From the NCBI GenBank assembly GCA_022711495.1, contig JAKLEX010000001.1, positions 370,171 to 434,170 on the forward strand: 64,000 nucleotides of DNA, written 5' to 3'. The notes below the pieces were generated by a model. It was given only the letters and a program-made list of their open reading frames with translations. It was not told the origin of the DNA and did not search any database. How positions within the stretch are numbered: the first letter of the stretch is position 1; every line of letters starts with the position of its first letter. This DNA is from Patescibacteria group bacterium (GTDB taxonomy: Bacteria; Patescibacteriota; Minisyncoccia; Phycocordibacterales; JAACPR01). Made by a program: the position numbers and the translations under genes. Shown here piece after piece: positions 12,520-63,940 of the stretch.

Positions 12520-13816
12520 AAAGAAAATTCTGGCTTTAGTACTTGTTCTCATGGGCCTGATCCCTCTTATTTCAACTGCCAACAACAGAGAAATTGATTT
12601 ATTGAACGATCAAATTGAAGACAAGAGAGAAGAACTGGAAAGATTAGACGAAGAAATCGCTAAACAAAGACAAGCCCTGCAATCAGTCAGTGGGGAAGCC
12701 ACGACCTTACAAAGTAACTTGAATCAGCTGGAGGCCACGCGAAAGAAAATTCTATCGGACATAAAATATACTGAAACAAAAATTTCGGAAATTGAACTAA
12801 CCATTGATAAGATAAATCTAGAGATAAACGAAAAAGAAAAGCTCATCCAACAAAATTCCGAAGCGCTGTCAGAGTCCATCAGAAAAATTCGGCAACTGAA
12901 GGAAATTTCTTTGGTAGAACAAGTTCTAGGCTATGAGAGTTTCTCGGATTTTTGGAACGAGTTTGAACAAACGGAAACAATACAGAAAAAACTCGGCTCA
13001 GAAGTAAACACTTTGCTTAGCTTAAAAAGCGAACTAGAAAACAAGGAACAAGAGAAATCCAACGAAAAAGAAGAGCTGTCTGAACAAAAAGTGACCTTGG
13101 CCAGCAAAAAAGTCGCGGTTGAATACACGCAGGAGGAAAAAGCGGTTTTATTAAACAAAACCAAAAATCAAGAGGCCGAATACCAAAAAATCCTAAATGA
13201 AAGTCTGGAGCGCCGAAAGGCCTTCGAGGCTGAACTCCTTGAAATTGAGTCTAAATTACAAACTCTCATAGACCCCGAAGGTTACGCCTCCGCCCGAAAC
13301 GGAATCTTGGCTTGGCCGGTCTCCGGATTTAGAATAACGCAGTATTTCGGAAACACCGCCTTCGCCAAAAGCAACCCGCAATTTTATTCGTCTGGTTTCC
13401 ACAATGGCGTAGATTTGGCTGTGCCAATCGGCACAAATGTTCGGGCCGCCGCGGCAGGGAAGATAAAGGGGTTTGGCAATACGGACGCCTTTCCGGGCTG
13501 TTATTCTTGGGGTAAATGGATCTTAGTTGAGCACGAAAGCGGTTTATCCACATTATATGCCCACTTGTCAAGTATATCCGTATCAGTAGGGCAAAAGGTT
13601 AAACAGGGGGACTTGATCGGACTAAGTGGCAGTTCTGGCATAAGCACCGGACCGCATCTTCATTTCACGACTTATATCACCCAGGGTGTTCAAATTAGAA
13701 ATTACCGAGATGTCGCGCCGAAAGCTTATGGTTGCGGAGCTTATAACGTAAGCATCCCGATGGGATCTTTAAATTCTTACGTTGATCCGATGGATTATCT
13801 ACCTGAATTGAAATAA
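12497..13816 (+). CDS. Secreted M23 family metallopeptidase with long N-terminal coiled coil (EnvC/murein hydrolase activator-like)
   Basis: Signal peptide, about 230 aa of heptad-rich coiled coil, then an M23 LytM domain (HNGVDLAVPIGT..., GSSGISTGPHLHF). Confidence 0.8.
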   Translation: MICRIKSKKKILALVLVLMGLIPLISTANNREIDLLNDQIEDKREELERLDEEIAKQRQALQSVSGEATTLQSNLNQLEATRKKILSDIKYTETKISEIELTIDKINLEINEKEKLIQQNSEALSESIRKIRQLKEISLVEQVLGYESFSDFWNEFEQTETIQKKLGSEVNTLLSLKSELENKEQEKSNEKEELSEQKVTLASKKVAVEYTQEEKAVLLNKTKNQEAEYQKILNESLERRKAFEAELLEIESKLQTLIDPEGYASARNGILAWPVSGFRITQYFGNTAFAKSNPQFYSSGFHNGVDLAVPIGTNVRAAAAGKIKGFGNTDAFPGCYSWGKWILVEHESGLSTLYAHLSSISVSVGQKVKQGDLIGLSGSSGISTGPHLHFTTYITQGVQIRNYRDVAPKAYGCGAYNVSIPMGSLNSYVDPMDYLPELK

Positions 13817-13835
13817 CGAAACAAATTAAATTTAA

Positions 13836-14912
13836 ATGGCCGAGCTATTAACTTTTTCCAGAGAAACTTATAACGAGGAGATAAAAAACTTCTTGGATAA
13901 AAATTACGCACCGCTAACGCAGTATGATTTTTACGGCAATTGGCAAAAGGCCGTCGGAAGAGATGTCTATGAATTTTCAATCAGAAATTCCGCTGGAGAA
14001 CTGGTGTTGTATTCCCAAGCCATCTCAATCCCCGCAGGACTTAAGAAAAAGTTTTTATACTGCCCATATGGACCAATCATCAGTAAAAAGATCTCCGAAA
14101 ATCCGGTTAAACTAACGGAGTTACTCAATTTTTTGAACGAGAAAATCTCGACGTTTTTGAGAGAAATCGACCATTCTTTCCTTAGACTTGACTTCACCCC
14201 CAATATTGATAATTTCGCGCAAAATAGCCCAAATTTGACCCTAAAAAGGGCCCCCAAATGGTCAGAGGGGGGATCTTTCTTCCAGCCGCGACTGGAAACC
14301 GCCCTCAACCTGTCAAAAGGCGTGGACGATCTATATTCGGAGATAGATTCAAAAAACCGCTATGCCATCAGGTTGGCCGAAAGAAAGGGGATCAAAATAG
14401 AGATTATTCTAGAAAATTTCTTAACCCATTTTGAAACTTTTTATCAGATGATTAAAGATACGGCTGACAGAAACTCTTTTAATTTGCACAGCAAAAAATA
14501 TTATCTGGAAATATTCAAAGATCTGGATAAAAGAAAAAATGGTCGATTGGTTTTGGCAAAAGTGGATGAAACAATCGCTACTTGTCTTGTTTTTGTGGAT
14601 TTTAACAAGACGACGATGTTTTTACTCGGGGCTTCTTTGACTGAATTAAATAAAAAAGTTCCAACATCTCACTTGGCTCATTGGAAAAATATAGAATTCG
14701 CCAAAAAATCCGGGTTAGAAATTTATAACTTTGGCGGAATATCTAAGGAAAAATCCCGCTCGGACAGTTTGAGCGGCGTAACTATGTTTAAACGAAGATT
14801 TGGCGGATATGAAATTAAACATTCTGATTATTACGACTTAGTTGTAGACAAAATCGGCTATAGAATATTCCTATTCAAGAAATGGCTTCGCTGGCTTAAA
14901 AATCTGATATAA
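13836..14912 (+). CDS. FemAB-family protein (probable peptidoglycan interpeptide-bridge aminoacyltransferase)
   Basis: Length and residue pattern resemble FemAB/MurM. Located right after the dcw genes and the M23 peptidase. Assigned by pattern recognition only. Confidence 0.5.
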   Translation: MAELLTFSRETYNEEIKNFLDKNYAPLTQYDFYGNWQKAVGRDVYEFSIRNSAGELVLYSQAISIPAGLKKKFLYCPYGPIISKKISENPVKLTELLNFLNEKISTFLREIDHSFLRLDFTPNIDNFAQNSPNLTLKRAPKWSEGGSFFQPRLETALNLSKGVDDLYSEIDSKNRYAIRLAERKGIKIEIILENFLTHFETFYQMIKDTADRNSFNLHSKKYYLEIFKDLDKRKNGRLVLAKVDETIATCLVFVDFNKTTMFLLGASLTELNKKVPTSHLAHWKNIEFAKKSGLEIYNFGGISKEKSRSDSLSGVTMFKRRFGGYEIKHSDYYDLVVDKIGYRIFLFKKWLRWLKNLI

Positions 14913-22834: not shown

Positions 22835-25800
22835 TCAATACCCCACATTAATCGTAGTTTTGAACGTCTGAACAACTGGACTGCCGACATAATTAGGCCC
22901 AGTGTGTTCCAGTCTAAGAATAATTTCAACTTGTCCCCTGTCGCTGCCAACCGGAGTTAGATTTCTAAAACTGGCGTATTGGACTTGAACATCTCTGGAG
23001 GTCAAACGTCTAGGTTCACCGTTCCCTTCCTGAATATACAAAACCCCACCTTCAACATAGAAAACGGTCTCAACGTCATCTTTAACAAAGGTAATCGTAG
23101 ATATACCCACCTGGGACAAAACGGTTGAGCCCCAGACAGACAAAGGATCTCTCAAAAAAGTAGTTTCGTGTTCATCTGCCAAAACAACGCTAGAAGTTCC
23201 GTCTAGTCCAAGTTTTATTGTCTTTCCGACAGAATCATATTCTCCCATTTCTTCCTGAAGAGAATATTCCGGATATACGCAAAGAACTTGGCCTTCTGGA
23301 ATCTCAACGGAATCTGAAAATTCAGCTGTACCACTAGCGTCATCAAGATCAACGGCCACGCCAAAAGGACTATCTTCGTCAAAACTTTCAACTTCAGCGG
23401 AGCTTTCTGGGCAAACAGACGAAGATGTTCCTGTCTCTAATACATAGTTCAGTTGAACATCATCAATATATTCTGGTTCTAGAGTTCCGAATTGTGTGAG
23501 AGTTATTTCTTCAATTGTGTCAGTTCCAGATTCTTTATAAAAGACAAAGGCACCATCAAGAGCAACATCAGCGTCCCCCGGATCAATTGCCGTCACGTGA
23601 CGACCGACGGTGGTGGCAATTAGGTTGCCTGTAGAAATTGAAGTTATGTCCCAGTTTATGTTATTGCCACTATCAAGACCGGTCGTCTCAATTACCAAGA
23701 CGTTAATGTTATTAGAATCCTGAACATCAACATAAGTTATGGCTCGAACACCTTGTGGGTCAATACTCCATTGTGTATCGGGAGTTGAAGATCTTAACAT
23801 CAGTAAATTAGATTCGTCAGAGCCAGACATGGTGGTGGTGCCAGCAACAGTGTATGTGCTTCCAGCGGTAAATGTCGCGGTCGTTGGTGTAGTTGTGGCT
23901 ATAATATTTAGATTTTGATAGGACCACGCCGGATTGATTGTCAGGGTATCCGAACCGCTGTATTCAACAGTAGAGCCGGTGTTCATGGTAACTGAACCAG
24001 TGACAGTTTCGGCACCGGTGAGACGTAGAGTGCCGCCGGATTGTGAAAAGCCACCATTGAACGTCGCGTTGACGCCGTTTAAGTCAACAACGCCAGTAGA
24101 AAGATTTAGGCCGTAACCGGCGAGGGCCTTTAGCCATGTGACCGTCCCGGAACCAGTCAGAGTTATGGTGGCCGATTCATTATTAAGGGTGGTCTTTGGC
24201 ATGTAGGCTCCAGCGGCAATATTTACACTTTGAGCTTCACCTCCATCAATGAGGAAACCAATTTTATAATAAGTGGTATTTACCCCATCAAATGTTGAGT
24301 TGACGACAACCGGACCTTCGGCGTTGAAAGTCGCGTCACCGGCACTAATTTTATAAAATCTCCCATTAGTTAGGGTCGTCGTGGCATTAACAATAAAGGG
24401 ATAGTTGTTCGCTAATGTTAATTGGACGTTGTTATCTTTATTAAACTCAAATTCATAAAACTCCACCGTGTCATCAGTGGTGAATGCCGCATTGGTGGCC
24501 CCGCTGATTATGACTTTCCCGTTGTTATGATCAAAAAAACCATCATCAGAAACAATGAGGCTGCCAGTGAGAGTCAGCAGATCTGATGGCGCTAAAAATG
24601 TCCCGCTTGAAATAGTGAGACTATTTAACGATTCATTGGGTGCGGTGGAATTTGTGAAAGAGCCGCCGGTAATTTCAAATGTTCCTCCGGCCCTGATCGT
24701 ACCGGAACCGCCAATAAAGGTCCCACCACTCTGCGAAAATCCGCCTGTAAAGACGGCATTTACACCATTTAGGTCAACCGTTCCATTTTGAATATATAGA
24801 CCGTAGCCTGTTGCTCCTGGCCATGTAGTAGTTCCGGAACCAGTTAGGGTTATGGTGGTTAACTCATTATTAAGCGTAGTTCTTGGCATATAGGCTCCAG
24901 CAGGCAAATTAAAACTCTGATCTACTTCCCCATCAATTAGAAAATTAACTCTATAATAAGATGTATTTACCCCATCAAATGTTGAGTTGACGACAACCGG
25001 ACCTTCGGCGTTGAAAGTCGCGTCACCGGCACTAATTTTATAAAATCTCCCATTAGTTAGGGTCGTCGTGGCATTAACAATAAAGGGATAGTTGTTCGCT
25101 AATGTTAATTGGACGTTGTTATCTTTATTAAACTCAAATTCATAAAACTCCACCGTGTCATCAGTGGTGAATGCCGCATTGGTGGCCCCGCTGATTATGA
25201 CTTTCCCGTTGTTATGATCAAAAAAACCATCATCAGAAACAATGAGGCTGCCAGTGAGAGTCAGCAGATCTGATGGCGCTAAAAATGTCCCGCTTGAAAT
25301 AGTGAGACTATTTAACGATTCATTGGGTGCGGTGGAATTTGTGAAAGAGCCGCCGGTAATTTCAAATGTTCCTCCGGCCCTGATCGTACCGGAACCGCCA
25401 ATAAAGGTCCCACCACTCTGCGAAAATCCGCCTGTAAAGACGGCATTTACACCATTTAGGTCAACCGTTCCATTTTGAATATATAGACCGTAGCCTGTTG
25501 CTCCTGGCCATGTAGTAGTTCCGGAACCAGTTAGGGTTATGGTGGTTAACTCATTATTAAGCGTAGTTCTTGGCATATAGGCTCCAGCAGGCAAATTAAA
25601 ACTCTGATCTACTTCCCCATCAATGAGGAAGTTAACGGCCGGAAAGTTTGATCTAACCCCATCAAATGTTGAGTTGACTACTATGGGACCCTCGGCCTTA
25701 ACAGTAGACATTGATCCGCTACTGTGAAATCGACCATCGGTTAATGTGGTTGTTGCTTTAACAGTGAAGAGATCTCCAGTGGCCAACACTAAATACGCCC

Positions 25801-26272
25801 CATTGGTCTTACTAAACTCAAACTCATAGAAATCTACACCGGCAGGTGGGGCATCAAAAGTCGCGCTACCACCGCTGGCGATAATTTTACCGCTATTATG
25901 GTCGAAAGCATCTTCTTCAACAATTGTAAAATTTCCGGAAATAGTCAGGGTATTCCCTGTCCCCGGAGCCGTGAACGTCCCTGTATATCCGGCCTGCATT
26001 GTCAGAGAGGCAATAGACCAGCTACCAGTAGAAGTGGCATCATTGGTACAAGACGAGGTGAAATAAACGGCATCGCTAGCACCCGGAACAGATGCGCCAC
26101 CGCTAACGCCGCAATCATTTGCCGCTGTTGACCAGTTAGCCGAATCCAAGACATCACCACCATCAGAGCCAACCCAGTAACGACTGGCCGCCTGACCAGT
26201 TTTGGCAAAAGCAAAAAGAAAAAGCGCGACCACTAGAAACTTAAATAGTTTTCTAAAGTTCATTATAAACAA
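22835..26272 (-). CDS. Large secreted repeat-containing surface protein (1145 aa; Thr/Gly/Asn-rich, likely beta-solenoid/adhesin-like)
   Basis: N-terminal signal peptide (MFIMNFRKLFKFLVVALFLFAFAKTGQAAS). About 3.5 copies of a ~229-aa repeat, two of them identical. Composition is typical of beta-helix adhesins. No LPXTG motif was seen. Confidence 0.7.
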   Translation of the reverse strand: MFIMNFRKLFKFLVVALFLFAFAKTGQAASRYWVGSDGGDVLDSANWSTAANDCGVSGGASVPGASDAVYFTSSCTNDATSTGSWSIASLTMQAGYTGTFTAPGTGNTLTISGNFTIVEEDAFDHNSGKIIASGGSATFDAPPAGVDFYEFEFSKTNGAYLVLATGDLFTVKATTTLTDGRFHSSGSMSTVKAEGPIVVNSTFDGVRSNFPAVNFLIDGEVDQSFNLPAGAYMPRTTLNNELTTITLTGSGTTTWPGATGYGLYIQNGTVDLNGVNAVFTGGFSQSGGTFIGGSGTIRAGGTFEITGGSFTNSTAPNESLNSLTISSGTFLAPSDLLTLTGSLIVSDDGFFDHNNGKVIISGATNAAFTTDDTVEFYEFEFNKDNNVQLTLANNYPFIVNATTTLTNGRFYKISAGDATFNAEGPVVVNSTFDGVNTSYYRVNFLIDGEVDQSFNLPAGAYMPRTTLNNELTTITLTGSGTTTWPGATGYGLYIQNGTVDLNGVNAVFTGGFSQSGGTFIGGSGTIRAGGTFEITGGSFTNSTAPNESLNSLTISSGTFLAPSDLLTLTGSLIVSDDGFFDHNNGKVIISGATNAAFTTDDTVEFYEFEFNKDNNVQLTLANNYPFIVNATTTLTNGRFYKISAGDATFNAEGPVVVNSTFDGVNTTYYKIGFLIDGGEAQSVNIAAGAYMPKTTLNNESATITLTGSGTVTWLKALAGYGLNLSTGVVDLNGVNATFNGGFSQSGGTLRLTGAETVTGSVTMNTGSTVEYSGSDTLTINPAWSYQNLNIIATTTPTTATFTAGSTYTVAGTTTMSGSDESNLLMLRSSTPDTQWSIDPQGVRAITYVDVQDSNNINVLVIETTGLDSGNNINWDITSISTGNLIATTVGRHVTAIDPGDADVALDGAFVFYKESGTDTIEEITLTQFGTLEPEYIDDVQLNYVLETGTSSSVCPESSAEVESFDEDSPFGVAVDLDDASGTAEFSDSVEIPEGQVLCVYPEYSLQEEMGEYDSVGKTIKLGLDGTSSVVLADEHETTFLRDPLSVWGSTVLSQVGISTITFVKDDVETVFYVEGGVLYIQEGNGEPRRLTSRDVQVQYASFRNLTPVGSDRGQVEIILRLEHTGPNYVGSPVVQTFKTTINVGY
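24278..25624. repeat. Perfect tandem duplication inside the surface-protein gene: two ~660 bp copies with 687 bp period (229 codons)
   Basis: Nucleotide stretches starting near 24283 and 24970 are identical for about 660 bp. The two identical antisense ORF-track entries 24555..24791 and 25242..25478 are offset by exactly 687 nt. Boundaries are approximate. Confidence 0.85.
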
Positions 26273-39919: not shown

Positions 39920-41209
39920 TTAGATGGAATACCTAACAACTACAATACCCGAGCCACCATTTCCGCCATTTTGTGTATACCCACCTCCTCCTCCGCCACC
40001 GCCAGTATTTGACTCACCGTTTGAAACTTCGGCTCCATCATACTGGCCACCCTGGCCACCGCCGCCCAAACCGCCATCACCATATTCAACCGTATTTGAA
40101 TCTGTACCACCGCCTCCGCCACCGCCATAATAAGTGGCTACACCGGTAATGCTAGAGGAGATTCCATCTCCACCGTCTCCTCCACCGGCATCATATAGAG
40201 CAGAGTCGCCTATTTCTCCAGCGCCTCCTCCCCCTCCGCCAGAGCCTATGCCAGGGGCGGAGTTACCACTTCCGCCATCATTTCCTTGCGCCGGAGCAAC
40301 TTCTGGAGTATTACCCAACCCACCACTGCCGCTTGAATGAGCGCCCCCGCCACCAGAACCGCCATTGCCACCATCACTATCGCCATAGCCACCACCATAC
40401 CCTCCACCCGCGGCACTGGTTGTGTCAAAAAGACTTGCACTACCGGCATTTCCTCTGGCATCTTCAACTATCGCGCCAGCTCCTCCATCACCAATTGTTA
40501 CGGAATAGTCACCGGCATCTAGAGATTCACCATCTAATTCTATGACGCCGCCACCGCCGCCACCGCCAGCAGCATGTCTTCCTCCCCCGCCACCGCCACC
40601 AACAACCAAGATATCAGCAGTTAGAGTGGTAAGAGCGGTAAATGTATCATCGGAAGTAAATGTGTGGACACAGTACGAGCCGTCTTCGGTAACAGTTCCG
40701 CCAGTAGCATAATCGGCACAGGCATCCTCCCCTCCACCCTCTTCTTCAACCAATGAAGTTGAAGTTCCAATGACAACGCCGCCTAATCCTTGTTCTTTTG
40801 AACCTGGAGCAATCAGAGCCAGCTTATTGCCAGTCTGAAGAGCTATTTCGTAATTACCACCATTTGGATTTTCTGGTAGAGCTGAAAGATAAGTTGGAAC
40901 TAGCTCAGCTGAAAGATCAACGCAATCTGGTTCTACTGTATCACCACCGGTATCGCAGATTTCTTGGAGACTGCCATCTAATCCATCCGGCCAGTCTAGT
41001 TCGTCTATATAGTATTGTTGGACAGCTTTATGAATAGCATTTAAATCACTGGCTCTTTGAGCGTTTCTGGCTTGAGCTAGTTGTCTAGAAGGATTGATGG
41101 CCACGATAACGATCGCTGCCAAAATGGCGATAATGGCGATGACCAGAAGCATTTCCAGGAGAGTGAAACCTTTTTGAGTATTTCGTTTCGATAATTGAAA
41201 GAAAGACAT
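39920..41209 (-). CDS. Type IV pilin-like protein (class III signal/N-methylation motif) with very long glycine-rich C-terminal domain
   Basis: N-terminus MSFFQLSKRNTQKGFTLLEMLLVIAIIAILAAIVIVAI is the prepilin cleavage/methylation motif plus hydrophobic alpha1 helix. A ~120-aa pilin-like head is followed by ~270 aa dominated by poly-Gly tracts (GGGGGGG…), ending …GGSGIVVVRYSI. Confidence 0.7.
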   Translation of the reverse strand: MSFFQLSKRNTQKGFTLLEMLLVIAIIAILAAIVIVAINPSRQLAQARNAQRASDLNAIHKAVQQYYIDELDWPDGLDGSLQEICDTGGDTVEPDCVDLSAELVPTYLSALPENPNGGNYEIALQTGNKLALIAPGSKEQGLGGVVIGTSTSLVEEEGGGEDACADYATGGTVTEDGSYCVHTFTSDDTFTALTTLTADILVVGGGGGGGRHAAGGGGGGGVIELDGESLDAGDYSVTIGDGGAGAIVEDARGNAGSASLFDTTSAAGGGYGGGYGDSDGGNGGSGGGGAHSSGSGGLGNTPEVAPAQGNDGGSGNSAPGIGSGGGGGGAGEIGDSALYDAGGGDGGDGISSSITGVATYYGGGGGGGTDSNTVEYGDGGLGGGGQGGQYDGAEVSNGESNTGGGGGGGGYTQNGGNGGSGIVVVRYSI

Positions 41210-41361: not shown

Positions 41362-41444
41362 GCGCGGGTGGCGGAATTGGCAGACGCACTTGCCTTAGGA
41401 GCAAGCGAGGTTCCCTCGTGGAGGTTCAAGTCCTCTCCCGCGCA
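41362..41444 (+). tRNA. tRNA-Leu (anticodon TAG), type II
   Basis: Acceptor GCGCGGG/CCCGCGC, anticodon stem CTTGC/GCAAG with loop CTTAGGA, variable arm CGAGGTTCCCTCGTG, T arm GGAGGTTCAAGTCCTCT. Confidence 0.8.
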
Positions 41445-41520
41445 CAAATAAACAAAGAACGTCAGCTCAAGGGCGAGCCGGCGTTTTTTGTTTTTGTGGT
41501 ATTTCTATCTGGTGCCGTAG

Positions 41521-41615: not shown

Positions 41616-42707
41616 ATGAACGTCATTGGAGCTTGGATGATTGCGGGATGCATTGGAATTCTGGCGATTTTTTCGGCCCTCGTGGGCGTCGTCAAGGTTA
41701 AGGAAAATAAGCCAGTGGAACAACTGTCGCGCTGGACCTGGTTTGTCCTGTCGCGGTTGTTTGTTGGTGCCCTCGCCTATGCGGCGACCATCAATATTCT
41801 GGCAACTTTTTCCGATTCAGATCCAAACTGGGCTTGGTATTTCGGTGGGATCTTGGTCGGCCTAAGCGTTTTCGCCCTGATGATCGAATTGACGCACAAG
41901 TCTGCGCTCTTTCGATTGGCAGGTAATAAATTCGCGCTGGCCACCGATATCTTCTTTGGACGAAGGGCAACTTTCATCCGTGAAGATATGGATTGTGCCA
42001 TTCGGACTTACCGGATCTATCTCGGTGGTCTGAATGCCAAGTTCGACTGGGAGATCGTTGAAATCGTCGACGAATTCAATCGTGATGTGATCGACACGAT
42101 CTCCTCAACGGTAGAATTCGAAGACTCGCCGGGGCTACTCTCTGGTAAGTATACGCTAAGACCCGATCCGGAGAGATTGCAGTACTTCGCTGCGACGAAT
42201 GTCGATACCGCAAAAAGAGATGCTCTCCTAAAGGAGGCTTTTGGCGGCTACGTAAGAATGTACTTGAGTGATTTTCTCAAGACAAAAAAAATCGACGGGG
42301 CCATGGCCACTAAGGGCACCCTGTTCGACGAACTCCCTGAATCTGTCAAAACAGAGCTCCGACGCCAGGAAGAAAAGTACGGGGTCAAGTTAAACACCCG
42401 TATCATCGACAACATTGACTATCCGCCAGAACTGGCGAAGGTCAATGAGCAAATATCGGTGATGGCGCGGATACGAGAGATGGTTAACTTCCAGCTAGAG
42501 AGCTGGGGTAAGACCAAGGAGCAGATCGAGGGTAAGGCTGATCGGGGAAATGTCACGCCCGAAGAGCGGAAAGAAGCGGAAAGACTGGTGTTGGCGATTA
42601 CCGAACAGGTTCCGGAAAGGACACTTCGGCACATCATCGATGGGCGTCTCGACAGCAAAACGGCTGGCAAGATTATCCTGGGCATCAATAGCGGAAAGGA
42701 GGAATGA
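41616..42707 (+). CDS. Polytopic membrane protein with C-terminal SPFH/band-7-like region (tentative); GC-rich, probably horizontally acquired
   Basis: Three N-terminal hydrophobic helices. The C-terminal segment …GVKLNTRIIDNIDYPPELAKVNEQISVMARIREMV resembles the SPFH core (…GI.V..V.I.DI..P.EV..AM…). Codon composition is visibly GC-richer than the flanking genome. Confidence 0.45.
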   Translation: MNVIGAWMIAGCIGILAIFSALVGVVKVKENKPVEQLSRWTWFVLSRLFVGALAYAATINILATFSDSDPNWAWYFGGILVGLSVFALMIELTHKSALFRLAGNKFALATDIFFGRRATFIREDMDCAIRTYRIYLGGLNAKFDWEIVEIVDEFNRDVIDTISSTVEFEDSPGLLSGKYTLRPDPERLQYFAATNVDTAKRDALLKEAFGGYVRMYLSDFLKTKKIDGAMATKGTLFDELPESVKTELRRQEEKYGVKLNTRIIDNIDYPPELAKVNEQISVMARIREMVNFQLESWGKTKEQIEGKADRGNVTPEERKEAERLVLAITEQVPERTLRHIIDGRLDSKTAGKIILGINSGKEE

Positions 42708-43279
42708 TTATGGTCGAGCCTACCATTCGTAGCGTTGATAAGCGGACGATCCGTCTTTTCGTCTGGGCACCCCTCGGAGTGATCTTGGCGATAGTCGTCC
42801 TGATCACCGGCTATGTCCATCGGAGAGAAATCTCCGAGTGGATAACCGAGCTTGCTCGGGAAAAAACGGAGACGCGGCAACCTGTGGCAACACAGCCAGT
42901 CGCGCCTCAAAACCAGACGTCAGTCCCCCACCTGCGAGTCTACAACCTCGTACCGGGCGGAGACCACGTTTCGGTTCTATTCCGTGATTCCGAGAACGAT
43001 GCCCTCGCCTGGTACGGCGATGGCGGTTGTTACCAGGTTCGATACATTAAGCAAGACGGAATGACCTGGAACGCACCGGGCTGTATGCCGGGTGGTTGGA
43101 TCTGGGCAATCCCAGGAATCCATTGGCAAACGGTTTACCAATGGATTGGGGAACCGCTGGCCATACAGTTCAGGGTTCCGGCAACCAGGATAGAAAAGTC
43201 CTGGGGACGCAGGGTTGAGAAACCCTGCGCGCCAGTGACGCTTCACGTATCGCTGAAACCGATACGAGATCCGTCCTGA
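42704..43279 (+). CDS. Hypothetical membrane-anchored protein (1 TM plus Trp/Gly/Cys-rich ~140-aa domain), translationally coupled to the upstream gene
   Basis: ATGA overlap with the preceding ORF. TM helix FVWAPLGVILAIVVLITGYV. No recognisable family. GC-rich like its partner. Confidence 0.45.
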   Translation: MIMVEPTIRSVDKRTIRLFVWAPLGVILAIVVLITGYVHRREISEWITELAREKTETRQPVATQPVAPQNQTSVPHLRVYNLVPGGDHVSVLFRDSENDALAWYGDGGCYQVRYIKQDGMTWNAPGCMPGGWIWAIPGIHWQTVYQWIGEPLAIQFRVPATRIEKSWGRRVEKPCAPVTLHVSLKPIRDPS

Positions 43280-58660: not shown

Positions 58661-59311
58661 CTACTTGGCGTTTAAAATTTTATTAATTCTAGCAACAGCC
58701 AAGGGCTGATTCATTCTGCCGTGTCCAACCGGATAATGCGTCGGATATACACGATATTTGGAGGAACCGATCTCTAAAATTTCAAAATTGTTTTTATGCT
58801 GACCAACTGAAATTGATTTTCCTAGAATAATTGAACTTACTTGGTTGCCAAAAGTAACGATGTGTTTAGGTCTAATGACGGCGATTTCCTCTTTCATAAG
58901 AGATAAATATTCTTTAAAAATCTGATCCTTCAGCGGACGCGCGTCAATTTGCGTACACTTGGCTAGATTCGTGACGTAGATTTTACGATCAGCCAAATAA
59001 CAATAAAGATTTTCCGAAAATTCCGGCGTCCACTGTCTTGGCGACGCGGATTGGATCAAACCAAGCAGCTTTTTTGGTATTAGTCCCAGTTCAAAAAACA
59101 GCGCCCAAATGTTTTTAGTTCCAAGCCACGGAGCTCGAATTCCTCGCCAACTTTTAACTGACGAAACGTTCCGGCCGGTTGGGTTCATAAAAATGAACAT
59201 TATTTTTGGTCGTTTTATACAGCCAGCGCCATAAATAGAACAAAGAGAGCTGTGGCCGTGGATTTTGTGAAGCCGATCAAATTTTTTGTTTAATTTAGTT
59301 ATCTGCATCAA
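58661..59311 (-). CDS. Uracil-DNA glycosylase superfamily-like protein (divergent motifs)
   Basis: UDG-fold landmarks: …IMFIFMNPTGRN… (motif A region), …VTNLAKC… and a C-terminal …THYPVGHG… (motif B-like HPS). Family not assignable by eye. Confidence 0.5.
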   Translation of the reverse strand: MMQITKLNKKFDRLHKIHGHSSLCSIYGAGCIKRPKIMFIFMNPTGRNVSSVKSWRGIRAPWLGTKNIWALFFELGLIPKKLLGLIQSASPRQWTPEFSENLYCYLADRKIYVTNLAKCTQIDARPLKDQIFKEYLSLMKEEIAVIRPKHIVTFGNQVSSIILGKSISVGQHKNNFEILEIGSSKYRVYPTHYPVGHGRMNQPLAVARINKILNAK

Positions 59312-59588
59312 AAAAATCTTTTAACGAAATCACTTGGATTCCCTTTTCTTCTATTTCTTTTTTAGACCAAAAAACTGATAGATCATCAATTTTCCACTTT
59401 CCGACAAAACCGACCGTCTTTTTCATCTCACGACCGGTATATTTTTTAGTTTTCGGATCCCATTCTTTTAAGATAAGCATGTCCCCTTCCTCTATCTCAA
59501 AATCATTTAGACGCAATTCAAATGTCTTATCGCCATTTAAAATCTTTTCAAAATATTCCGGCCAAGTTTTCTTTTCAATAATTCGCAT
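59295..59588 (-). CDS. ASCH/DUF3850-like small protein
   Basis: MRIIEKKTWPEYFEKILNGDKTFELRLNDFEIEEGDMLILKEW… resembles ASCH-type beta-barrel proteins. The ORF track starts 20 codons earlier. Confidence 0.45.
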   Translation of the reverse strand: MRIIEKKTWPEYFEKILNGDKTFELRLNDFEIEEGDMLILKEWDPKTKKYTGREMKKTVGFVGKWKIDDLSVFWSKKEIEEKGIQVISLKDFFDADN

Positions 59589-59644
59589 GCGGAAATTATA
59601 GCAAGAAAAAACCCGAGCCGTTTTGCGGTTCGGGTTATACATAA

Positions 59645-60658
59645 TCATGCCTCCCTTTCCACCCTGGTTCTATACTGCTGGGTATTTGTCAGGATCTCGG
59701 CGGTCGTATCGGCATAACGAAGCAGAATTTGAGCGGCTTCGCGAAATATCTGTTCCATGGCTGTCGTAGCCGGTCTTTTGTGCTTTTGGAAGTAACGATA
59801 TATCGTCGGGGTCAGCTGGAAATCCTCGAGTTTCATAACGAGAGCGCGAACTCGAGGAACCAAAGCCCGGAACGATTTATCATCATCGGAGGCTTTTTTC
59901 TCCCGCGGCGGTTTCTTCCCCCTCAACGACAGCCGCAAGAATTTCCCCTCGGAAATTAACCGGCGGAGCATCTCGTTGAGAACAACCGGGCTTGTCCCCT
60001 GCGCCCTCTCTTTCTCAATCTGCTGGAAAAGTTTCAACTGCTCGACCTCGGTCTTAAGCGTTGATAAACGCAAGGCCGCGGAAAAACTGATCCGATCCCT
60101 TTCAGGAGTCGGCGGATCAAGTTTCGCCAAAATGTCTGGGTGAAGTCTGGCCAGAGAAGTATAGTTGAGAACCCAACTTATCTTCTTGCCCACCGCCACG
60201 GCAATTTGATCGGCGGACATTAAGTTGGCCCGCAGAGCAATAACTGCTTTGATCTTTTCCTGGTGAGTGTGGTCAATCCGATTGAAGTTGGATATCAAAG
60301 ACAGCAGATGTTGCTGATTGAAGTCCTTTACCTGACAGATGATTATACGAATCGTCTTCAGGCCAGCCTGTTTAATGGCTCGCCAGCGCCTTTCACCGTC
60401 AATGAGTTCGTACTTCGCCCCATTGAGAGACTGCTGGAACTTTATGACCAAAACCGGCTGGGCTTGACCATTAGTTTTAATGCTTCCGGCCAAAGCCGTA
60501 AGTTCGTCCGGATCAAAATACATCCGCGGCTGATCCTTGAGCGGCGTAATTTCATCAACCGGCACCGTTAAAACCCGATTCTCCTCAACAACGAACCCGG
60601 CGTCAATCAACTGTTTCCGCGTCGCTTCCGACTTGTCCATCTGATTGCTATTTTTCAC
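59645..60658 (-). CDS. ParB/Srx-like nuclease-domain protein (337 aa) on a GC-richer islet
   Basis: ParB N-terminal-type motif …YELIDGERRWRAIKQAGLKTIRIII…, an HTH-like middle and an uncharacterised basic C-terminal domain. Visibly higher GC than neighbours. Confidence 0.55.
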   Translation of the reverse strand: MKNSNQMDKSEATRKQLIDAGFVVEENRVLTVPVDEITPLKDQPRMYFDPDELTALAGSIKTNGQAQPVLVIKFQQSLNGAKYELIDGERRWRAIKQAGLKTIRIIICQVKDFNQQHLLSLISNFNRIDHTHQEKIKAVIALRANLMSADQIAVAVGKKISWVLNYTSLARLHPDILAKLDPPTPERDRISFSAALRLSTLKTEVEQLKLFQQIEKERAQGTSPVVLNEMLRRLISEGKFLRLSLRGKKPPREKKASDDDKSFRALVPRVRALVMKLEDFQLTPTIYRYFQKHKRPATTAMEQIFREAAQILLRYADTTAEILTNTQQYRTRVEREA

Positions 60659-60775
60659 CTTAATTCTCCTCTTTGTTTTTCAAGAACTTCCTGCGCTATA
60701 AATTACACTTTTAATCGGAAAAAGCAACCAAGAAAAAACACCATCGCCGCGATGGTGTTTGCAACATAAGACTGT

Positions 60776-61189
60776 TCAAATCGTTTTGACTACCGCTGCC
60801 CTGGCAGTTTTGGCGGCCGTGGCGGTTTCCCTTGCCGCATCCAGATCCGCTTGAGCGCGGGCCATCAGATAAGCAGAGATAAGTTCGCGATGAGCCCAGA
60901 TAGTATCCTCAAACGCCCGGAGAAAGTGGCAGGGACAATTAATGACAGTTTGCTTGCCATCAACAGTTCCCCAGGAAACATACCCATCGGAATGGCAGAT
61001 GTATTTGTCGGGATTGACTGCCCGTTTCCTTTCCAGGTCGTCAAGCTCTCCCGGTTCCATATCCGGGCTGTCGTCGTAGTAATGAATTCTTCCGCACTGC
61101 TGACAATCAACCACCAAACTGCCCGATTCAGGAACCAATTCCTTGATCGTATCCGACGGTTGCCTTTTTGAAAAGACCTTCATCCTCAT
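60776..61189 (-). CDS. Hypothetical Cys-rich protein (putative zinc ribbon: CQQCG…CHSDG…CPCH), Ala-rich C-terminal helix
   Basis: ORF on the same GC-rich islet as the ParB-like gene. Cys and His spacing suggests metal binding. No family recognised. Confidence 0.4.
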   Translation of the reverse strand: MRMKVFSKRQPSDTIKELVPESGSLVVDCQQCGRIHYYDDSPDMEPGELDDLERKRAVNPDKYICHSDGYVSWGTVDGKQTVINCPCHFLRAFEDTIWAHRELISAYLMARAQADLDAARETATAAKTARAAVVKTI

Positions 61190-61255
61190 CTCCTTTGGTT
61201 AGAGTTTCACTGAAAGATCCTGCTAGGTTCTTATTATCAAATAAGAGTGGTGGTG

Positions 61256-62299
61256 TCAAATAAGTTTTTTAAGTTTTAAAAGCGGAATTTTTACAAGTTT
61301 AGACACTCCTTCTCTGACAACTATCGGTAATACGATCTTATCACCAACGAGCTTCTTGTCCTTTAGAACTGCTTTCCAATCAGCTTTATATTTATCAGTA
61401 AAACCTATTCCGAGTATTCCATAAAGATTCAATAGATTTTCCCGAACGTAAGGCTTTGTCAATTTAAGTCGTTCCGCAATTTCTAATTCCTTCACCATAC
61501 CGATCAAGACGGCTCTGCCGTGACTAATTTTGTATTTGAGTTCAATGGCATGGCCGATCGTATGACCGAAATTTAATACTTGCCTTACTCCTTTATCTTT
61601 TTCGTCTTTGGATACATAAAAATACTTAGCCTTGATAGATTTTTTAATAATTTTATGTAATTTTTTACTTCTACTTAAAGTAGAGACAGACTCTTTTCTC
61701 AAGAGAGATAGGATTGATTTGTCCTTTATCAAACCCACCTTAATGATTTCACCTAGTCCACCGATTATCTGTTCTAAACCATTAGAATTAATGGCCTCCC
61801 CATCAATAATAGTGGCAATGGCTGGGTAAAATGAACCAATCTGATTCTTTGCATTTTCAAAGTCAATTCCTGTTTTCCCGCCATGCGAACTGTCTACTTG
61901 AGCGAGAAGCGTAGTTGGAACATTTATGTATTTAATTCCTCGAAGATAAATTGACGCGGCAAAGCCAGCAGAATCTCCTACGGTACCACCGCCGACGGCG
62001 ATCACAAGAGCCTGTCTGTCCAAGCCTAAGTGTAAAAATTTTTTCAGTAACTTTTCTATTGATCGCCAACTCTTGGCCTTTTCTCCATCGGGAATAATGA
62101 TCACGGGCATATTTTTAAAGAAACGATCAAAAATATCCCTCAACCTTAATTGAACATTTGCCGAAGTTATAAGAACTACCTTAGACGGACCGTCTTTTTC
62201 AATTAATTTATTTATCGCCTTGAGGTTGTATAAAACACCATGATTCCTTTTTGGAACTTTTGATTTGGTCATATTTCGACTACTCAACTTTACTCCCAT
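61256..62299 (-). CDS. 3-dehydroquinate synthase family protein (DHQS-like sugar-phosphate cyclase; true substrate uncertain)
   Basis: Gly-rich NAD loop VGGGTVGDSAGFAAS, and …DSSHGGKTGIDF… and …NFGHTIGHAIE… metal-binding His motifs typical of the DHQS superfamily. No other shikimate genes in the window. Confidence 0.6.
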   Translation of the reverse strand: MGVKLSSRNMTKSKVPKRNHGVLYNLKAINKLIEKDGPSKVVLITSANVQLRLRDIFDRFFKNMPVIIIPDGEKAKSWRSIEKLLKKFLHLGLDRQALVIAVGGGTVGDSAGFAASIYLRGIKYINVPTTLLAQVDSSHGGKTGIDFENAKNQIGSFYPAIATIIDGEAINSNGLEQIIGGLGEIIKVGLIKDKSILSLLRKESVSTLSRSKKLHKIIKKSIKAKYFYVSKDEKDKGVRQVLNFGHTIGHAIELKYKISHGRAVLIGMVKELEIAERLKLTKPYVRENLLNLYGILGIGFTDKYKADWKAVLKDKKLVGDKIVLPIVVREGVSKLVKIPLLKLKKLI

Positions 62300-62488
62300 T
62301 TTGATTTTAAGTCGATATTTTTTCAGAACCCCAAGAAAGGCCTTACGACGAGGACTTTATTATAGAAAATAATTAAAAAGTAATTTTATCGATCTTTGTG
62401 AGCCTAATCGAGATGGGGCCCTAACTCACTAAGCCCCGTAATAACATTATGAGACTGCTAATGAAAACGATTCGACCCTTCTCTAGCA

Positions 62489-62935
62489 CTAGAAAAAAAC
62501 ACTCACAATAATAGCGATTACCGCCAACAGCAAGGTTCTGAAATTCTGTATTCTTTCTCTTTTTCTATCTAAAGTTCTATCTATAATTTCAATATATTTA
62601 GAAGCTTCTTGTATGCTTTTTGATATGGCAGGTTGGAATTGAAAGTAACTAGCAATATCTTGTGGATTATTTTCTAATCCTTCAAATAGATCATCTGGTG
62701 TTTCAAGCTTTTTAACAATTGCATAAAAATTTTTGGATACCTCTTCATAACGATTCTCTAAAATAGATAAGTGTTTAGAAAAAATAGGAAATTTTATTCT
62801 ATACTTCTGAACATCAATAAGTAACTCTTTGAGATTTTTGGAGACAGGAAAAAGTTCATCTTTTACAGCATCCAACATCCTTTTCGCACCTTCTGAGAGA
62901 GGTATTTTTCTTTGTTGATTTCTACTATTGTCCAT
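62489..62935 (-). CDS. Hypothetical tail-anchored protein (helical; C-terminal TM helix)
   Basis: Likely start MDNSRNQQ. C-terminal LLLAVIAIIVSVFF anchor. No family recognised. Confidence 0.35.
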   Translation of the reverse strand: MDNSRNQQRKIPLSEGAKRMLDAVKDELFPVSKNLKELLIDVQKYRIKFPIFSKHLSILENRYEEVSKNFYAIVKKLETPDDLFEGLENNPQDIASYFQFQPAISKSIQEASKYIEIIDRTLDRKRERIQNFRTLLLAVIAIIVSVFF

Positions 62936-62969
62936 AATACTTTTCGAGTGCTCGAACGGCGCTCGACAC

Positions 62970-62989
62970 TGTGACCCTACGCGGAATCG
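62970..62989. repeat. 20-nt direct repeat of the tRNA-Glu 3' end (tgtgaccctacgcggaatcg), second copy at 63159..63178; att-like scar
   Basis: Exact 20-nt match read from the sequence. The downstream copy is the last 18 nt of tRNA-Glu plus 2 flanking nt. Confidence 0.6.
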
Positions 62990-63127
62990 GTCACAGGTTC
63001 TCAATAATTATAGTCGCTCGGTCTATTAAATCAAAGTCGCCCTCGCTCCTTAATTATTGGACCCGCGACCCCGCCTCACTCGCTTCGCTCGTTCCGGCTT
63101 TCGATCCCGCTGGACCCACACAAAAAA

Positions 63128-63156: not shown

Positions 63157-63160
63157 CGTG

Positions 63161-63232
63161 TGACCCTACGCGGAATCGAACCGCGCTTCCAAGCTTGAAA
63201 AGCTTGTGTCCTAACCGATAGACGATAGGGCC
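63161..63232 (-). tRNA. tRNA-Glu (anticodon TTC)
   Basis: Reverse complement folds as acceptor GGCCCTA/TAGGGTC (one G-U pair), anticodon stem CAAGC/GCTTG with loop TTTTCAA, T arm GCGCGGTTCGATTCCGCG. Confidence 0.75.
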
Positions 63233-63466: not shown

Positions 63467-63940
63467 ATGTCTCGCGCTGATATTCACGATTGGTTTCGCG
63501 CTAAAATGAAAGAGCACCGCTTTTTCGTCGGTTTCTGGATTGCTCTCTTCGCCTTGGGCATTATCGCGCTTATCGCGAATTTGTCCGTCGCGCTTGAGCT
63601 CCAGGCGATCTCGGAAATTGAAAGCTGGTCTCCCAAGACTGTTCAGATGTATTGTAACGCTCTTCTGTGGATCACGCTGATATCGTTGGTTTATCATGCC
63701 AAATATCGCGACAAGTATCGTGGGCCGGCGGCGGCGATTGATACGGCCTTTTTTGCCGTGATGTTGCTGGGCACGTTCATTGAAGTCCCGGGGCTTAGCT
63801 CAATCAATACCCTGTTATGCGTGGCCATTTCTGCCGGTTTAATCTGCTGTGGCTACCGCAAACTGCTGGAAGTTCGCGGGTCAAGACGAAAGTTCTCGGA
63901 TCCGTGGCCGCAAAACGGATTTGATGACAACGGTCTATGA
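63467..63940 (+). CDS. Hypothetical polytopic membrane protein (157 aa), GC-rich, immediately downstream of tRNA-Ser
   Basis: RBS AAAAGGAGGAAG before the ATG. Four hydrophobic helices. Composition visibly GC-richer than the core genome. Confidence 0.4.
   Translation: MSRADIHDWFRAKMKEHRFFVGFWIALFALGIIALIANLSVALELQAISEIESWSPKTVQMYCNALLWITLISLVYHAKYRDKYRGPAAAIDTAFFAVMLLGTFIEVPGLSSINTLLCVAISAGLICCGYRKLLEVRGSRRKFSDPWPQNGFDDNGL

Follow-up and report, generated by a model that had tools for sequence, protein, structure and literature searches.

We examined two co-directional genes on the minus strand of the window, the 64,000-nucleotide stretch of DNA that was analysed. The larger gene, ParBL (59645..60658, minus strand), is an orphan ParB-family gene as judged by profile and structure matches; it encodes 337 aa from a GTG start with AGAGGAG upstream. 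The smaller gene, CysR (60776..61183, minus strand), was taken from the ORF list, is preceded by AAAGGAG and encodes a Cys-rich ORFan of 135 aa, or 137 aa when read from 61189. Gene callers use the second ATG, at 61183, and the 135-aa gene recurs in independent assemblies. Both ORFs are present as an earlier, sequence-only reading of this DNA had described them. They lie in a variable block that extends from trxB to tRNA-Glu (58661..63004), delimited by comparison with fetched loci of the nearest relatives. The block also holds a UDG family-4-like gene (PF03167), a DUF3850/ASCH gene, a DHQS/aroB-like gene and a 129-aa ORF. Profile matches confirm the flanks proposed earlier, UDG-like and ASCH-like genes on one side of the pair and a DHQS-like gene on the other.

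The pair was also said to stand out in composition from AT-rich neighbours, and this was borne out. Maximum-likelihood two-boundary segmentation of 58661-63004 placed a GC-rich segment at 59611..61165, with 49.8% GC versus 36.3% in the flanking block (chi-square p 5e-18), and the same patch is visible in a sliding GC profile. On the scale of the window (42.1% GC), 59605-61255 reaches 49.1%, the 97th percentile among same-size windows; the tetranucleotide deviation of the islet is moderate (92nd percentile, z 1.6). GC3 is 0.589 in ParBL (z = +4.1) and 0.543 in CysR (z = +3.0), compared with an average of 0.41 over the 54 other ORFs of the window. Together these measures support a compositionally foreign islet. 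A syntenically conserved small gene adjoining tRNA-Ser likewise has elevated GC, both here and in the related locus L008; thus GC alone does not prove recent transfer.

In the nearest available relatives (L008 and L009, FtsZ 88-90% identical), FtsA-FtsZ-TrxB is kept and other genes occupy the position of the block. L008 (FtsZ 90%) carries FtsA-FtsZ-TrxB, a protein-kinase-like gene and then tRNA-Glu and tRNA-Ser, and L009 differs again. The fetched loci of these two relatives contain none of the variable-block genes, showing that the islet genes are not syntenic core genes. Within the species, 12 of 12 contigs are 100% identical, and every contig with an identical DHQS or CysR gene also carries the islet. 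Because all twelve are identical, they yield no presence/absence polymorphism and no dN/dS. Near the far edge of the block, 62970..62989 is an exact 20-nt copy (direct repeat family D2) of the 3' end of tRNA-Glu (63159-63178), the tRNA itself being detected at 63160-63232 on the minus strand. Judged by its sequence, this duplicate resembles an att-like scar edging the variable block. A search of 58.6-64 kb turned up no integrase, and no att or TIR repeats, integrase or transposase flank the 1.55-kb islet. Rfam, at gathering and E-value thresholds, returned the two tRNAs only and no structured RNA in the GC-rich patch.

The larger protein had been singled out for a ParB N-terminal-type motif, IDGERRWRA, and labelled a nuclease-domain protein. 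ParBL passes the cut-offs of PF02195 (ParB_N; E 1.9e-21, 76.4 bits, cut-off 26.3) and TIGR00180 (90.1 bits, cut-off 58.45), which substantiates the motif. It matches phrog_4715 with E 8e-31 and solved ParB, Noc, Spo0J and KorB structures in the PDB with profile E-values of 5e-32 to 1e-17. A Foldseek search with the AF2 model (pLDDT 80) returned 7bnr, 7nfu, 6sdk, 6t1f and 8qa9, the top matches being Noc, KorB and CTP- or CDP-bound ParB. The model superposes on the N-terminal and HTH domains of C. crescentus ParB, Noc and KorB over 205-234 columns, with TM scores (by target) of 0.67-0.74. ParBL genuinely belongs to the ParB-CTPase family: it has the complete clamp architecture of CTPase, HTH and C-terminal domains and a fold nearest to ParB, Noc and KorB, and the nuclease label is not supported.

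Residue-level alignment to M. xanthus ParB (7bnk) places the N-terminal ParB-CTPase domain at residues 29-124 (60287..60574, minus strand). Box I (DQPRMYFD...SIKTNGQAQPVLV) and Box II (IDGERRWRA) are intact and correspond residue for residue to those of 7bnk. Box III reads SNFNR versus the canonical ENLQR: Ser123 replaces Glu, and the Asn and Arg are kept. The Box III Glu has been implicated in CTP hydrolysis, and its replacement by Ser suggests that nucleotide hydrolysis may be slow or altered in ParBL. The Box I, Box II and Box III positions of ParBL are invariant across the subfamily alignment A1. A central helical HTH DNA-binding domain follows at residues ~132-237 (59948..60265, minus strand), assigned by structural alignment and by PF17762, which matches slightly below its cut-off (E 7e-4, 20.1 bits against 22.6). 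The remainder (59651..59947, minus strand) consists, according to AF2 secondary structure with pLDDT 67-80, of a basic linker (residues 238-255, LRLSLRGKKPPREKK) and a domain of three helices (256-279, 282-293 and 295-336) that presumably mediates dimerisation. The sequence-only reading took this part for an unrelated basic C-terminal domain. Instead, the linker and three-helix domain are conserved across a large ParB-like family with roughly 1,200 representatives: the C-terminal region is alignable throughout the 11-sequence family A2, and most of the best 150 hits in a search of 1.84 billion representatives align to about position 290-310 of the 312-position profile.

Among ~5.8 billion proteins, only four (P0002, P0003, P0004 and P0193) are close full-length homologues of ParBL, with 41-54% identity, giving a subfamily of five members including ParBL. 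At all four loci with context (the window, L006, L007 and L176), the gene stands alone among housekeeping genes, each time at a different position. The housekeeping genes are CPR-like in the window and in L007, and the neighbours are less diagnostic at the other two loci. Subfamily genes are GC-richer than their neighbours there as well (0.46 versus 0.35 in L006, 0.51 versus 0.38 in L007 and 0.53 versus 0.38-0.41 in L176). The upstream companion is different at each locus or missing, and the gene has a promoter-like site and a terminator each time. Members of the sister clade are located in integrase and DUF5131 arrays. Matches in annotated phages and plasmids show at most 40% identity to ParBL, and none spans 80% of the protein. 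A comparison of vertical with horizontal descent turned on one doubtful shared aaRS, 24% identical and possibly paralogous.

An earlier proposal, that the pair is the remnant of an integrated plasmid or phage, stands in part. The variable tRNA-adjacent region, the 20-nt duplicate and the integrase-bearing sister clade favor it, and the lack of an integrase or repeats flanking the islet counts against it. A mobile-element origin, which we infer, therefore draws on composition and context. In the extreme form of this proposal the islet would be an inert relic of a plasmid or phage that has been lost, decaying and with both genes non-functional. The missing integrase and other element genes, the tiny size of the patch (1.55 kb), the ORFan status of CysR and the att-like tRNA scar close by would all fit such a fragment. 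However, ParBL is full length with invariant nucleotide-binding motifs, its three domains are conserved over five lineages at the 41-54% identity given above, and a Shine-Dalgarno sequence, promoter-like site and terminator are kept in each copy. Full length, invariant motifs and kept expression signals form a pattern that points to purifying selection, and we consider simple decay unlikely.

We searched for the other components of a partition system. That ParBL has no ParA partner had been noted before and holds more widely: tblastn with a B. subtilis Soj query recovered Soj in unrelated Firmicutes control loci and gave no match across the 64-kb window and the flanks L001-L007. The LG-R/K-GL ParA-binding motif is absent from the N-termini of ParBL (VKNSNQMDKSEATRKQLIDAGFVVEE), P0002 and P0004, and that of P0003 has LGGLG alone, with the basic residue missing. 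A look for parS-like repeats near the gene, proposed at the outset, returned nothing beyond chance. The canonical parS pattern gave a single 3-mismatch match in the window versus 1.7 expected by chance, no 16-bp near-palindrome is repeated in the window or common to the ParBL loci, and the inverted repeats gave no candidate site. In both the window and L007, AT-rich palindromes cover the promoter-like sites, and those of one locus are unrelated to those of the other. We rejected a ParABS partition system on these findings: no ParA in 64 kb, no LG-R/K-GL motif and no canonical parS beyond chance.

ParBL might still be the working segregation ParB of its host, acting with a distant ParA or without one, for example by loading SMC at parS, its odd composition being incidental. 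Its complete clamp architecture with Box I and Box II intact, its TIGR00180 score over the cut-off and the chromosomal housekeeping neighbourhoods of its homologues agree with such a role, and the ParA search covered 64 kb of a contig of at least 550 kb, along with the flanks L001-L007. Yet neither a ParA in 64 kb, nor the ParA-binding motif, nor parS-like sites in the window were found. Furthermore, five members in 5.8 billion proteins are far too rare for a core function, and the gene changes position from genome to genome and is GC-richer than its host every time. We therefore hold a host segregation role to be quite unlikely.

For CysR, the CxxC…C…CxC pattern reported earlier is C27xxC30 ... 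C63-H ... C83-P-C85-H in the 135-aa numbering, followed by an Ala-rich C-terminal helix; by this pattern the protein is possibly zinc-binding. An AF2 single-sequence model (pLDDT 54) is interpretable solely at the C-terminal helix. Searches of Pfam, PHROGs, PADLOC and NCBIfam assigned it to no family, the best echoes being insignificant (IS66, E 0.06; DUF5319), and a search of 5.8 billion proteins returned CysR from its own species only. Likewise, tblastn against phages gave nothing under E 0.5, and tblastn with a Cys-motif scan of all fetched loci gave nothing, including beside the other four subfamily members.

The signals around the two genes separate them. A strong intrinsic terminator, found by the terminator scan and as inverted repeat I25, lies between CysR and ParBL (60736..60760, minus strand), with an 11-bp stem (AAACACCATCG/CGATGGTGTTT) and a T-run. 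Upstream of CysR is a promoter-like site, TTGACA-17 nt-TAATAA (61231..61259, minus strand), seen by eye and not called by a consensus scan; it overlaps the DHQS stop codon and a palindrome with 7-bp arms, TCTTATTTGATAATAAGA. Going by its letters, this site could function as a promoter. Directly past the ParBL stop codon, a hairpin (AACCCGAACCGCAAAACGGCTCGGGTT) and T-run were seen by eye (59605..59636, minus strand), at the position of the GC step. The consensus scan did not call the hairpin, its stem being imperfect; it is probably the intrinsic terminator of ParBL, and a hairpin and T-run also follow the gene in L006, L007, L176 and L177. The sequence-only reading had suggested that the two genes may belong together as one module. 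That idea is not supported, since a promoter-like site, a Shine-Dalgarno sequence and a terminator accompany each gene separately and CysR has no homologues anywhere. CysR is an independent, species-restricted ORFan that shares the foreign composition and is not a conserved partner of ParBL; nothing ties the two functionally.

The same evidence bears on the idea, raised at the start, that ParBL and CysR work as a pair, either in defence against phages or as an addiction (toxin-antitoxin-like) module. Several defence systems do contain ParB_N domains, the pair sits in a variable, island-like region, and PADLOC gave weak echoes of PD-Lambda-5_A (E 0.004) and MTase_II (E 0.019). However, these echoes are insignificant and confined to the shared ParB_N domain; the PADLOC-DB 2.0 scan of both proteins and four neighbours contained nothing significant, and CysR had no match. 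Pfam, PHROGs and NCBIfam revealed no effector domain of the nuclease, toxin or NTPase kind, and no toxin-like partner turned up. A strong terminator separates the genes, each with a promoter-like site, and CysR, lacking homologues, is missing from the other ParBL loci. Because ParBL and CysR do not co-occur, the defence module is largely refuted, and we regard it as extremely improbable.

Alternatively, ParBL could serve as the targeting or NTPase subunit in a cluster for DNA or RNA modification, formed with the UDG-like, DUF3850/ASCH, CysR and DHQS-like genes, all of which lie within one variable block. Analogues would be DndB, DpdB, ParB-methyltransferase fusions and ParB-dependent phage T-dioxygenases; two papers (PMC10164549, PMC13229309) describe ParB-like partners of DNA-modifying enzymes. 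PHROG family 15982 (453 positions) is matched twice, at 33-148 by the N-terminal domain of ParBL (E 3e-11) and at 379-428 by the ASCH neighbour (E 0.025), a hint of phage fusions of ParB_N and ASCH. Yet the ASCH match is not significant, the neighbours are AT-rich (0.34-0.40 GC), opposite to ParBL in composition, and a terminator lies between ParBL and the ASCH gene. Downstream of the subfamily gene there is instead MraZ in L007 and RNase H in L176, and the L006 contig ends right past the ParBL terminator. A modification cluster is thus very unlikely.

We favor, with some confidence, the explanation that ParBL is a horizontally acquired orphan ParB in a Paceibacteria (CPR) genome, a self-contained cassette encoding, by analogy, an NTP-gated clamp. 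The cassette (promoter-like site, Shine-Dalgarno sequence and terminator) would have been gained horizontally, landing in the tRNA-adjacent variable region, and is most likely what survives of a mobile element. If it works as Noc, KorB, VirB and BisD do, a ParBL dimer would recognise a specific DNA site through its HTH. Box I and Box II would then take up CTP or a different NTP, the N-terminal gate would close, and the dimer would slide or spread on DNA. So clamped, it might serve as a regulator or DNA-organising factor and not as a ParA-coupled centromere protein. Such NTP-dependent clamping and a regulatory role are what its relatives lead us to expect. As a compositionally foreign cassette, the gene adds a small point in favor of gene transfer into symbiont genomes of reduced size. 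It also lends itself to studies of how a ParB works when ParA is missing and Ser stands in for the Box III Glu.

A bolder reading, which we think rather improbable, is that the subfamily marks unrecognised CPR-associated mobile DNA, or is a repeatedly captured single-gene cassette kept for a ParA-independent function. If so, a GC-rich orphan ParB clamp would land at differing sites of Paceibacteria-like genomes, with variable upstream cargo; among the hosts, the genome of the window is the one assigned to Paceibacteria. The retained function could be, for example, to silence or organise foreign DNA, or to load SMC where parAB has been lost.

Compared with known systems, ParBL shares with canonical ParB/Spo0J Box I and Box II, the HTH fold and ~30% identity to the M. 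xanthus, H. pylori and Thermus proteins. It differs in the lack of a detected ParA, ParA-binding peptide or parS, in the Box III Ser for Glu, and in a C-terminal domain of unrelated sequence. Noc likewise is a ParB without ParA function; it gives the best NCBIfam match (TIGR04285, E 7e-27) and superposes (7nfu) over 234 columns with TM 0.71 by target. However, no soj/spo0j lies near ParBL, an N-terminal membrane-targeting amphipathic helix is not evident and the C-terminal domain differs. Noc identity was rejected on the score, 94.3 bits versus the 315-bit equivalog cut-off, and on the missing soj-spo0j neighbourhood. KorB (RK2), VirB (Shigella) and BisD (ICEclc) are CTP-dependent ParB-like transcription regulators on mobile elements, and ParBL shares with them the ParB-CTPase and HTH domains, its fold matching KorB 8qa9 with TM 0.70 by target. 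In contrast, ParBL resembles KorB only weakly in sequence (E 2e-4), no KorA-like partner or operator was found and the context of ParBL is chromosomal.

The closest counterparts are orphan ParBs. These proteins have the ParB-CTPase fold, are encoded outside parAB and form an emerging class of DNA clamps gated by nucleotides; most have no known function. A survey describes them as having the canonical domain order, no ParA motif and a divergent Box III, and as often linked to mobile elements, with ATP-binding and GTP-binding members among them (bioRxiv 10.1101/2025.10.10.680097, Kaljevic et al.). ParBL agrees with these proteins in its three-domain order, absence of a ParA neighbour and of LG-R/K-GL, divergent Box III and association with horizontally moving DNA. 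It is a new example of this already described class and reveals no new system. The ParBL subfamily differs from other orphan ParBs in being a tiny clade, seen here only as GC-rich single-gene cassettes. It adds to the class a clean and very rare clade, whose gene is a compositionally foreign cassette with a different position in each of four AT-rich genomes.

By its FtsZ relatives, the host is placed in Paceibacteria, near Taylorbacteria, Zambryskiibacteria and similar MAGs, with a CPR-type genome and a window GC content of 42.1%. ParBL, the ParB-family gene (59645-60658, minus strand, 337 aa), and CysR, the co-directional cysteine-rich ORF (60776-61189, minus strand; 137 aa, or 135 aa from the second ATG), had been read as a GC-rich islet, and GC content, segmentation and GC3 all agree that this segment is atypical. 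The interval 59605-61255 has 49.1% GC, the 97th percentile among windows of the same size. When the surrounding block is segmented by two-boundary likelihood, a GC-rich segment emerges at 59611-61165 (0.498 vs 0.363 outside; chi-square p 5e-18). GC3 is 0.589 for ParBL (z = +4.1) and 0.543 for CysR (z = +3.0), against a mean of 0.415 (SD 0.043) for 54 other ORFs; the tetranucleotide deviation of the islet is moderate (z 1.6). Same-species contigs from independent assemblies are all 100% identical and show zero presence/absence polymorphism; all carry the islet, which is therefore not an assembly artefact.

Other segments of the window also deviate in composition. A type IV pilin-like protein (39920-41209, minus strand), with an N_methyl motif, a Gly-rich domain and internal repeats of roughly 120 nt, has 50.5% GC yet a GC3 of only 0.33; unlike the ParBL islet, it owes its high GC to its amino-acid makeup (Gly/Pro codons) and not to foreign origin. 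Immediately 3' of tRNA-Leu(tag) (41362-41445), two GC-rich ORFs of 363 and 191 aa (41616-43279, plus strand; GC 0.51-0.56, GC3 0.60 and 0.615), neither with a Pfam family, have tetranucleotide deviations that correlate with that of the islet (r about 0.6-0.67) and may form a second foreign islet; a duplicate of the tRNA 3' end was looked for beside this tRNA and not found. In tetranucleotide usage, a secreted-looking ORF of 1,145 aa (22835-26272, minus strand) is among the most deviant parts of the window (z about 3-3.5), with ordinary GC3. Directly after tRNA-Ser lies a GC-rich membrane-like ORF of 157 aa (63467-63940, plus strand; GC3 0.595), whose GC no Rfam family accounts for. Its syntenic homologue in L008, a locus of one of the nearest relatives (14219-14681), is also GC-richer than its own genome (0.42 vs 0.34), so elevated GC need not signal recent transfer in this lineage.

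We compared the gene order with that of the nearest species-level relatives, which retain FtsA-FtsZ-TrxB. The L008 gene order runs from TrxB through two small minus-strand ORFs and a protein-kinase/APH-like gene (12200-14004; Pkinase E 9e-10) to the abutting tRNA-Glu/tRNA-Ser, and the genes beyond are the same as here; L009, the other such locus, has entirely different genes after TrxB. Thus the whole block 58661-63004 is a variable region, and the contents of L008 support the slot between trxB and tRNA-Glu as a cargo hot spot. With neither ordinary composition nor syntenic core status found, the foreign-islet reading stands. The flanking genes were correctly named: a divergent family-4-like UDG (58661-59311, minus strand; below NCBIfam cut-offs), a DUF3850/ASCH ORF (59295-59648, minus strand) and a DHQS/aroB-like gene (61256-62299, minus strand; 288.9 bits vs a 305-bit cut-off), with no other shikimate-pathway gene found within about 5 kb. 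In the loci fetched from the nearest relatives, the UDG-like and DHQS/aroB-like genes are absent; they are therefore accessory too. With a 129-aa ORF these genes make the block a compositional mosaic, in which ParBL and CysR are GC-rich and the other four genes do not exceed host GC. An exact copy of the final 20 nt of tRNA-Glu (63159-63178) lies at 62970-62989, 190 bp downstream of the tRNA, and pairs with its own flank as a hairpin (CTGTGACC...GGTCACAG). The copy resembles an att-type scar of the kind left by tRNA-targeted integration, at an integration hot spot; no integrase remains in the block, and no repeats flank the 1.55-kb islet.

ParBL clears both Pfam ParB_N (E 1.9e-21) and, at 90 bits (cut-off 58), the NCBIfam ParB/RepB/Spo0J domain model, with HTH_ParB near threshold. 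Among solved structures, a profile of ParBL and ten relatives matched chains of ParB, Spo0J, Noc and KorB (5e-32 to 1e-17). The AlphaFold2 model (mean pLDDT 80) has an α/β N-terminal domain, a helical middle domain and a C-terminal part with a poorly ordered basic linker and three long helices; Foldseek matched the first two domains to M. xanthus ParB-CTPγS, Noc, B. subtilis ParB-CDP, C. crescentus ParB and KorB. In residue-level alignment with M. xanthus ParB, both Box I (DQPRxYFD...SI...G..QP) and Box II (GERRWRA) are intact, and Box III is SNFNR rather than ENLQR, so that the Glu implicated in hydrolysis is replaced by a Ser invariant in the subfamily. ParBL is thus a full clamp-type ParB, more than a ParB/Srx domain, and the "nuclease" label first proposed is unsupported. 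Nor is its C-terminal part the unrelated basic domain first described: it aligns across the 11-sequence family; the family profile has 1,186 matches at E ≤ 1e-30 (1.84 billion representatives), and among the best 150 most follow it nearly to the end. Phage ParB-like proteins of comparable length are present in BFVD.

The top PHROG families for ParBL are ParB-like partition proteins. We consider a true segregation ParB a less likely reading. As first noted, ParBL lacks a ParA partner: a Soj query, validated by strong matches in Firmicutes control loci, found none in the window or flanks. The ParA-binding peptide LG-R/K-GL is absent from the ParBL N-terminus, canonical parS is not enriched, and the window and the subfamily loci hold no repeated or shared palindromes. 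Assignment as Noc fails on score (94 bits vs a cut-off of 315).

A defence or addiction pair with CysR had also been suggested. CysR has its own AAAGGAG ribosome-binding site and a promoter-like TTGACA-17-TAATAA overlapping the DHQS stop codon, and a strong terminator (11-bp stem) separates it from ParBL. A zinc site would fit its CxxC...CH...CPCH pattern; the zinc-ribbon label finds no family match in the searched sets, and the single-sequence AF2 model is unreliable except for a C-terminal helix. No homologue occurs outside its own species among about 5.8 billion proteins, nor in the fetched ParB-related loci. CysR is no conserved partner of ParBL, leaving the pair reading unsupported and less likely.

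Among the same 5.8 billion proteins ParBL has only four close full-length homologues (P0002, 54% identity; P0003, 52%; P0193, 46%; P0004, 41%). Where context is available, the gene stands alone among unrelated genes, in a different position each time and always with GC above its neighbours: between AspRS and MraZ in L007 (0.51 vs about 0.38); in L006 after HisG/HisI/Ham1/aldo-keto reductase and two unknown ORFs, before a contig end (0.46 vs about 0.35); and in L176 between an unrelated GC-rich secreted ORF and RNase H (0.53 vs 0.38-0.41). The upstream companion varies (CysR here, a 144-aa ORF in L006, a 257-aa ORF in L176, none in L007). A DNA-modification cluster formed with the neighbours is a less likely reading. 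The ParBL N-terminal domain matches positions 33-148 (E 3e-11) of phrog_15982 (453 positions, unknown function), and the adjoining ASCH protein matches 379-428 (E 0.025), a hint of fused ParB_N-ASCH proteins in some phages; that the two genes adjoin here may be coincidence. As listed, the ASCH ORF begins with an ATG overlapping the ParBL stop codon (ATGA), but its Pfam match sets in only at residue 24 and its first 20 codons contain the hairpin of the ParBL terminator. Translation probably starts at the ATG at 59588, 8 nt beyond a TATAAT, on what would be a near-leaderless transcript. Every ParBL copy comes with a promoter-like site and a Shine-Dalgarno sequence of its own, and a hairpin and T-run follow the gene; an inert relic is a less likely account of the islet. 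Some more distant relatives (about 31-34% identity) sit alongside DUF5131, AlpA and tyrosine integrases where small co-directional genes form arrays; others are orphans in chromosomal contexts. Annotated phages and plasmids gave no match above about 40% identity and none covering 80% of the protein. ParBL is probably accessory and foreign. Its recurrence as a GC-rich single-gene cassette, each time elsewhere in an AT-rich genome and in at least two of them beside CPR-like housekeeping genes, is only mildly unusual.

Together, the results are best explained if ParBL is an orphan ParB-CTPase clamp gained by horizontal transfer. From its analogy to Noc, KorB, VirB and BisD, we infer that it most likely binds a specific DNA site and that nucleotide-gated N-terminal closure most likely lets it slide on DNA, where the clamped protein would act as a regulator or organiser; the Box III Ser suggests slow or altered hydrolysis. 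Orphan ParBs are widespread, often on mobile elements, without the ParA motif and often with divergent Box III (bioRxiv 10.1101/2025.10.10.680097), and ParBL adds to this already described class rather than representing a novel kind.
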